Below are positions 3,012-3,159 of a stretch of 17,297 bases of DNA, in pieces. The stretch is taken from the IMG/VR virus record IMGVR_UViG_3300031555_002005, one strand, 5' to 3'. The notes beneath the pieces are model-generated. The model worked only from the letters and a program-made list of their open reading frames with translations, did not search any database and had not been told where the DNA came from. Each line of letters starts with the position of its first letter. The stretch's first letter is position 1. Origin of the DNA: a virus (Duplodnaviria; Heunggongvirae; Uroviricota; Caudoviricetes). Both the position numbers and the translations under genes were made by a program.

Positions 3012-3039
3012 AGTGTACAAATCAACCACCTATAGGCAA
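3012..3039 (-). promoter_or_regulatory. Possible leftward sigma-A promoter
   Basis: TTGCCT (3039-3034), 16 bp, TACACT (3017-3012). Confidence 0.35.
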
Positions 3040-3049
3040 AAGCTGAAAA

Positions 3050-3097
3050 ACACAACATATTGTAGGTTTTAAGTACCCCCACCACTATATATTGTGG
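3050..3097. promoter_or_regulatory. Tandem NrdR-box-like palindromes
   Basis: ACACAACATATTGTAG (3050-3065, 13/16) and CCACTATATATTGTGG (3082-3097, 14/16) versus consensus acaCwAtATaTwGtgt; starts 32 bp apart. Confidence 0.7.
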
Positions 3098-3130
3098 TAT
3101 TACCAGGGTCAAACCAAATATGTATTTGAT

Positions 3131-3159
3131 TTGACTTTCCTATGCTGTGATGTTAATAT
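3131..3159 (+). promoter_or_regulatory. Possible rightward sigma-A promoter
   Basis: TTGACT (3131-3136), 17 bp, TAATAT (3154-3159), preceded by TGT. Confidence 0.5.

Follow-up and report, generated by a model that had tools for sequence, protein, structure and literature searches.

The central control region of a large, uncultured gut phage contains a pair of 16-bp boxes that is probably a genuine operator for the host repressor NrdR, through which early transcription of the phage would be coupled to the dATP/ATP state of the cell. The pair lies in a stretch of 17,297 nucleotides from an IMG/VR virus record (IMGVR_UViG_3300031555_002005), here called the window. Leftward genes run up to position 2458, positions 2459-3956 are non-coding and rightward genes start at 3957; the boxes are found at 3050-3065 (box 1) and 3082-3097 (box 2). 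NrdR is a repressor regarded as dedicated to ribonucleotide reductase (RNR) genes, and published work reports it in 77% of bacterial genomes. A first-pass annotation had proposed NrdR-type operators in this phage control region in the absence of an RNR gene. Comparative sequence analysis lends this proposal strong support: the published determinants are present, the pair is kept in 12 of 28 homologous regions with permitted linkers, and it is the sole pair in the related genomes examined.

Sequence and spacing of the boxes

An NrdR operator needs two boxes, because a single box is not bound (PMC13584703). Critical for binding are C4 and G13, located 8 bp apart, as well as A6 and T11; A8-T9 shows strong conservation, and the stretch between C4 and G13 must be at least 63% AT (PMC13584703). 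The length of the linker between the boxes matters and its sequence is irrelevant (PMC13584703). Four NrdR proteins from three phyla were shown to bind at spacers of 14-17 bp and 24-27 bp, and repression in vivo was lost at spacers of 18-24 bp (PMC12051234). Heterologous boxes are bound by NrdR proteins across phyla, those of E. coli and Streptomyces among them (PMC13584703).

Of the 16 consensus positions, box 1 (ACACAACATATTGTAG) has 13 and box 2 (CCACTATATATTGTGG) has 14; no strand is assigned to either. C4, A6, A8, T9, T11 and G13 are all present in both boxes, and C4 and G13 stand 8 bp apart here as well as in all 24 boxes of the 12 box-bearing regions described below. The AT fraction between C4 and G13 is 0.88 in box 1 and 1.00 in box 2 (100% AT). 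The box starts are 32 bp apart, giving a linker of 16 bp. Re-scoring thus reproduced the two imperfect 16-bp palindromes of the first-pass annotation with the same match counts and spacing, and the pair has every published sequence and spacing determinant of an NrdR operator (two boxes, key positions, AT-rich core and linker).

Three sites with at most 3 mismatches were seen in the window against 0.53 expected. A pair at allowed spacing (at most 3 mismatches in each box) did not occur in any of 3000 dinucleotide-preserving shuffles of the window, nor did one arise when the intergenic stretch 1780-3960 was shuffled 3000 times. Taken alone, the published regular expression, which is looser, lacks specificity and gives 1.16 pairs per shuffled window. 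Contigs from three sequencing runs were identical to the window over 2412-3326, with no variants in the boxes and no molecule ends.

Conservation of the pair in related phages

The first relatives were identified through the adjoining winged-helix protein and consist of two IMG/VR contigs of 110 and 101 kb (G001 and G002), one of which has the boxes, with 1 and 2 mismatches and a 17-bp linker, and one of which does not. Two probes neutral with regard to the boxes were used, namely a conserved 30-mer (3001-3030), run on IMG/VR viral and metagenome contigs, and a neighbouring family of 50-aa proteins. Combined, they yielded 28 distinct homologous control regions. The box pair is present at the same spot in 12 of them, and unrelated sequence is found there in 16, which makes the site dispensable.

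Pairs with all six key positions, at most 5 mismatches and any linker from 1 to 64 bp were then sought in about 750 kb of related phage DNA. This returned 11 pairs, every one of them at the homologous locus; the linker is 16 bp long in six, 17 bp in three and 25 bp in two. L009, a near-duplicate contig and the twelfth region with boxes, was outside the scan. Whether the boxes and their spacing are kept in relatives had been raised in the first-pass annotation: the pair persists in 12 of the 28 regions, with linkers of 16, 17 or 25 bp only. None of these falls in the range that NrdR does not tolerate and all lie within the published binding ranges (PMC12051234). The 25-bp linkers differ from the 16-bp class by 9 bp, approximately one helical turn, as is the case in streptococcal operators. 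Each box-bearing contig has exactly one pair, and no pair was found in the box-less relatives (474 kb in total). When the criterion was loosened to five of the six key positions, no further boxes appeared beside the conserved 14-mer of the linker.

The DNA flanking the boxes is just 33-40% identical between relatives. Within the boxes, the less constrained positions 5/12 and 7/10 form complementary pairs in only 13 of 24 cases. Such weak complementarity amid diverged flanks agrees with the NrdR logo, whereas a hairpin would need paired positions. It is very improbable that the palindromes are chance AT-rich sequence or hairpin elements with no protein partner. AT-rich promoter regions do yield TATA-like palindromes, and the loose regular expression finds a match about once per window by chance. 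Against this stand the 3000 shuffles without a pair, the lack of any pair elsewhere in the 750 kb of related DNA, the persistence of the pair at one spot amid strongly diverged flanks, and stem positions that are not kept complementary. A consensus RNA structure of the conserved scaffold around the boxes was not predicted by RNAalifold on either strand.

No match to the window was obtained by megablast and blastn against cultured phage genomes, and a search of Rfam gave nothing at gathering thresholds. The first 32 kb of Enterocloster phage PMBT24 has neither the boxes nor the conserved elements around them. Three of the box-less regions (L004, L005 and L010) have, at offsets 45-100 from the 30-mer, three TTATGCA-type repeats at positions flanking the 14-mer. 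These recall the TGCA-N3-TGCA repeats next to the winged-helix gene of the window (2008-2052 and 2447-2462), and suggest that operators of different regulators have been swapped into one scaffold.

Promoters and helical phasing

A rightward sigma-A-type promoter, PR, is predicted on the plus strand at 3131-3159 (TTGACT-17-TAATAT, with the TG of an extended -10 upstream of the -10 box). It had been indicated in the first-pass annotation, was recovered by a promoter scan and has a counterpart in most relatives. The leftward promoter proposed at the same time at 3012-3039 did not hold up: it scores only 8/12 in our count, is missing from the scan list and is not conserved. Another leftward candidate, PL, lies on the minus strand from 3112 to 3084 (TTGACC-17-TATAGT, 10/12). 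Its -10 is inside box 2 and box 1 would fall at about +12 to +27. The same layout was also called in L012 and L054, and inspection by eye added L116 and L055, the latter having a poorer -10. PL is doubtful, and was treated as secondary because it is lost in the closest relative, L105. As read from the sequence, the -35 hexamers of PL and PR are the arms of a palindrome at 3107-3136 (no strand assigned), of which the inner part, AAATAnnTATTT, recurs in several relatives.

The boxes thus cover the -10 of a non-conserved candidate promoter, but sit upstream of the conserved PR. Such a position upstream of the core promoter, and not over it, is unusual for a simple steric repressor. The boxes end 33 bp upstream of the -35 of PR, and the distance from the centre of box 2 to the centre of the -35 is 44 bp. 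Over the 12 box-bearing regions this distance is 22 bp in one, 33 bp in five (for L035 taking the nearer of two candidate promoters), 44 bp in two, 55 bp in two and 65 bp in two, and therefore the boxes are always on one helical face relative to PR. The regions share a single helical phase within about 1.5 bp, which is estimated to be unlikely by chance (order 10^-3), about 8 of the 12 having independent intervening sequence. No common phase was found in the box-less relatives.

In class I CRP-type promoters and in regulation of the phi29 p4 type, RNA polymerase responds to a factor that binds upstream at phased positions. The phage sites resemble these systems in that their centres differ by whole turns, at roughly -55, -66, -77, -88 and -98 when the centre of the -35 is assumed at about -33. 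The protein differs, since NrdR is known solely as a promoter-overlapping repressor and is not known to contact RNA polymerase.

A conserved scaffold around the boxes

The boxes are embedded in a scaffold that is also present in relatives without them. Its left part is the 30-mer at 3001-3030, with one copy per related genome, and the 16-bp linker (3066-3081) contains, at 3066-3080, the 14-mer GTTTTAAGTACCCC(C), which was found in all homologous regions, with boxes or without. Counted from the first base of the 30-mer, the 14-mer begins at offset 66, or at 65 in L008; L019 was left unscored. Where boxes are present they always bracket or overlap the 14-mer. A second copy of the 14-mer core, AAGTACCCCC, is located at 2541-2555 and is also kept in L001, L002 and L009. 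The scaffold adjoins a G/T-rich, C-poor tract of about 440 bp (2561-3000) with a GC skew of 0.74. None of these elements has a strand assigned to it. The skew of the tract is present in approximately 19 of 21 homologous regions and is similar in the corresponding intergenic region of phage SPbeta. In 185,579 bacterial and archaeal genomes the 30-mer pattern had chance matches only, none of them together with the 14-mer, and so provides neither a prophage copy nor a clue to the host.

Two observations concern the tract itself. A leftward transcript of 2561-3000 would be rich in C and poor in G, and may in this respect be compared with a Rho-loading (rut) region. Contigs from two faecal runs lack 178 bases of the tract, with position 2822 joined straight to the 30-mer, which begins at 3001; this junction is a length variant of the tract, represented by one low-depth contig per run.

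The surroundings are similar to the yonP-yonR region of SPbeta, where the pac site, or genome-opening point, is located (bioRxiv 10.1101/2021.11.22.469490). The two are placed alike with respect to the arm leading to a YonO-type RNA polymerase and the late genes, and in both a C-poor tract is followed by a motif containing TACCCCC. By this synteny, the scaffold may be part of a packaging-start or genome-opening region. SPbeta differs in having one weak box-like element and no pair, and the similarity is limited to short motifs. A role of the scaffold as a YonO promoter was considered and is opposed by the same synteny, the YonO promoter of SPbeta being located upstream of yonK.

From the analogy with yonP-yonR it follows that NrdR may gate the scaffold (30-mer and 14-mer) instead of, or besides, a promoter. 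The scaffold would then be a packaging start or genome-opening site, an origin or a promoter for the YonO-type polymerase, and occupancy of the 14-mer by NrdR would license the event only when dATP falls. The constant association of boxes and 14-mer is consistent with this, as are the single copy and fixed internal spacing of the scaffold, its lack of a conserved RNA fold, its location in a divergent intergenic region about 8 kb upstream of the gene for a YonO-like polymerase, and the pac site, C-poor tract and TACCCCC motif of the SPbeta counterpart. We nevertheless consider it unlikely that NrdR acts on the scaffold and not on a sigma-A promoter, for the tight phasing of the boxes is with PR, the YonO promoter of SPbeta is elsewhere, and the resemblance to SPbeta is short and lacks the partner box.

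The phage family and its host

The phage belongs to a family with genomes of roughly 160 kb. In four related contigs (G001, G002, G006 and G007) the divergent intergenic region heads the arm of a YonO-type polymerase, as in SPbeta, with the polymerase gene about 8 kb from the scaffold. The gene is located in the leftward arm (L071:10030-12831 in G002) and its product is a YonO-like two-barrel, single-chain RNA polymerase of 933 aa, 89-94% identical among the relatives, with identities of 37-38% to its counterparts in Clostridium phage c-st and in Enterocloster phages and of 25% to YonO of SPbeta. An HU-like gene follows; after it, Enterocloster phage PMBT24 has its late structural genes, which keep that orientation. 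The polymerase and the HU-like gene place the family near SPbeta, Clostridium phage c-st and the Enterocloster phages.

For other proteins, similarity was to phages of Bacillus, Enterococcus, Lactococcus and Clostridium, and a host among the Bacillota would agree with the strong Shine-Dalgarno sites and the extended -10 promoters. Going by protein similarity, the host is probably one of the Clostridia or another member of the Bacillota, and NrdR is assumed to be present there. Public runs containing DNA of the window are animal-faeces and bovine-gut metagenomes, and no RNA run was listed among them. The rightward arm of the window encodes an M28-like peptidase (12777-13799), whose homologues are found in large phages of Bacillus and Enterococcus, and a protein with a cREC_REC (cyclic-phosphate processing receiver) domain (14926-15276).

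Candidate binding proteins

The first-pass annotation had noted that no RNR gene is nearby. No RNR or ATP-cone domain was found among the ORFs of the window, and the two closest contigs, G001 and G002, encode no large, small or NrdD subunit of RNR and no ATP-cone. No ATP-cone ORF was found in contigs G001-G004, G006 and G007, which include the box-bearing G002 and G006. A distant relative without boxes, G005, has a 736-aa ATP-cone protein, which is probably an RNR. As for a phage-encoded NrdR or RNR, a point also brought up in the first-pass annotation, none was found in the window or among the relatives with boxes; the contigs concerned are all incomplete (63% and 27% by CheckV for the box-bearing ones).

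Several phage proteins were considered as binders and rejected. The winged-helix protein (2060-2458) is not the binder, because it is 89% identical in the box-less G001; its gene has its own strong consensus promoter followed by a different, phage-specific operator. A 111-aa zinc-ribbon protein (16640-16975) is not NrdR-like and occurs in box-less relatives too. The 50-aa protein, encoded on the minus strand at 400-561, belongs to an uncharacterised family of 70 clusters without a Pfam domain and is predicted to adopt a beta-beta-alpha-beta fold. Boxes are present at 8 of 11 loci with this gene and at 1 of 9 without it. As a binder or obligate partner it was rejected in the sense of a strict link, since three loci possess both gene and scaffold yet lack boxes. 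LexA sites (Cheo box) and CRP/FNR-type sites do not fit in the arrangement of their half-sites.

The phage does have a repeated operator of its own, a 16-mer (ACAGTACAAAATTAAT) with five copies in the window (up to 2 mismatches), a number reached in none of 200 shuffles. The copies are on the minus strand at 1338-1353, 1739-1754 and 2400-2415 and on the plus strand at 4760-4775 and 16187-16202, two of them just downstream of consensus promoters. No copy was found in the control region with the boxes (3000-3170).

It remains quite unlikely that the palindromes are operators of a dimeric regulator encoded by the phage, their likeness to NrdR boxes being superficial. Phage control regions usually have phage-specific operators, the 50-aa family is enriched at box-bearing loci, and a regulator could be encoded in the missing parts of the incomplete contigs. 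However, all 24 boxes have exactly the six positions conserved in NrdR boxes, an invariance that is partly built into the search criterion, and the linkers take only values permitted for NrdR, including the jump of one helical turn. The 50-aa protein has no DNA-binding signature, its model gave no significant fold match and the protein atlas no lead, and besides the three loci without boxes there is one with boxes and no gene for it within 5 kb. Moreover, the operator that the phage repeats is a different 16-mer, kept out of the box region.

Since the phage candidates were rejected and no ATP-cone ORF was found in the window or the box-bearing contigs, host NrdR is the most economical binding protein. 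Given that these contigs are incomplete, we infer rather than assign this binder.

Comparison with bacterial NrdR operators

The phage site was compared with the operators of the S. coelicolor nrdRJ and nrdAB, the E. coli nrdAB, nrdHIEF and nrdDG, and the L. monocytogenes and S. pneumoniae nrd operons (PMC9110341, PMC12051234, PMC13584703). Like these RNR-promoter operators, it consists of two 16-bp partial palindromes with C4, A6, A8, T9, T11 and G13 and an AT-rich core. The linkers of 16-17 bp, and of 25 bp in two relatives, correspond to the short and long spacer classes. Unlike them, it controls no RNR gene and is part of a divergent early control region; control of an RNR operon defines the classical NrdR regulon and not the binding site itself. 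The phage site also brackets a conserved phage motif, its repressor would be borrowed from the host, and it is located 2-6 helical turns upstream of the promoter and not over the -10 or the start. No paper on NrdR boxes in the control region of a phage, or upstream of phage genes other than RNR, came up in full-text literature searches.

Proposed mechanism

When dATP rises, NrdR forms a tetramer loaded with dATP and ATP that binds both boxes and sharply kinks the DNA (PMC9110341). By analogy with the nrd operons, host NrdR in this form would occupy both phage boxes while dATP is plentiful and DNA synthesis low, kinking the DNA across the conserved 14-mer. From there it would modulate host-RNA-polymerase promoters of the central divergent control region. 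The main target is probably PR, which is always whole helical turns downstream of box 2; in some relatives PL, whose -10 is covered by box 2, may be targeted as well. Once phage or host DNA synthesis drains dATP, NrdR would carry ATP only and leave the boxes, and the output of PR, and of PL in some relatives, would change. Repression is the default expectation, and the phased upstream geometry would also allow activation or an effect of DNA bending.

During lytic phage infection of S. pneumoniae, host operons regulated by NrdR were strongly induced (PMC6755750). A phage site bound by NrdR would therefore be released as replication proceeds. The first-pass annotation had suggested that NrdR gates either replication initiation or early transcription. 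That early transcription is gated is plausible, given the helical phase between the boxes and a conserved promoter. Direct control of the winged-helix gene, or of replication initiation, is not supported, because that gene has a strong promoter of its own and a different, phage-specific operator.

A broader role can be envisaged in which NrdR is a replication-coupled developmental timer, sitting both across the single-copy 14-mer site and on a fixed face upstream of an early promoter, and leaving only once phage synthesis has drained dATP. We give this a small chance only. Equally tentative is its extension, in which the 14-mer site is possibly a packaging start or special promoter and related phages have unrelated sequence, possibly other operators, at both positions.

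If the boxes are indeed an operator for host NrdR, these phages would read the dATP/ATP signal of the host directly, though the contigs of close relatives have no RNR gene. It would extend the action of NrdR to phased sites upstream of a promoter, a geometry not described for this protein, and would provide a simple coupling of phage gene expression to DNA replication or to the growth state of the host.
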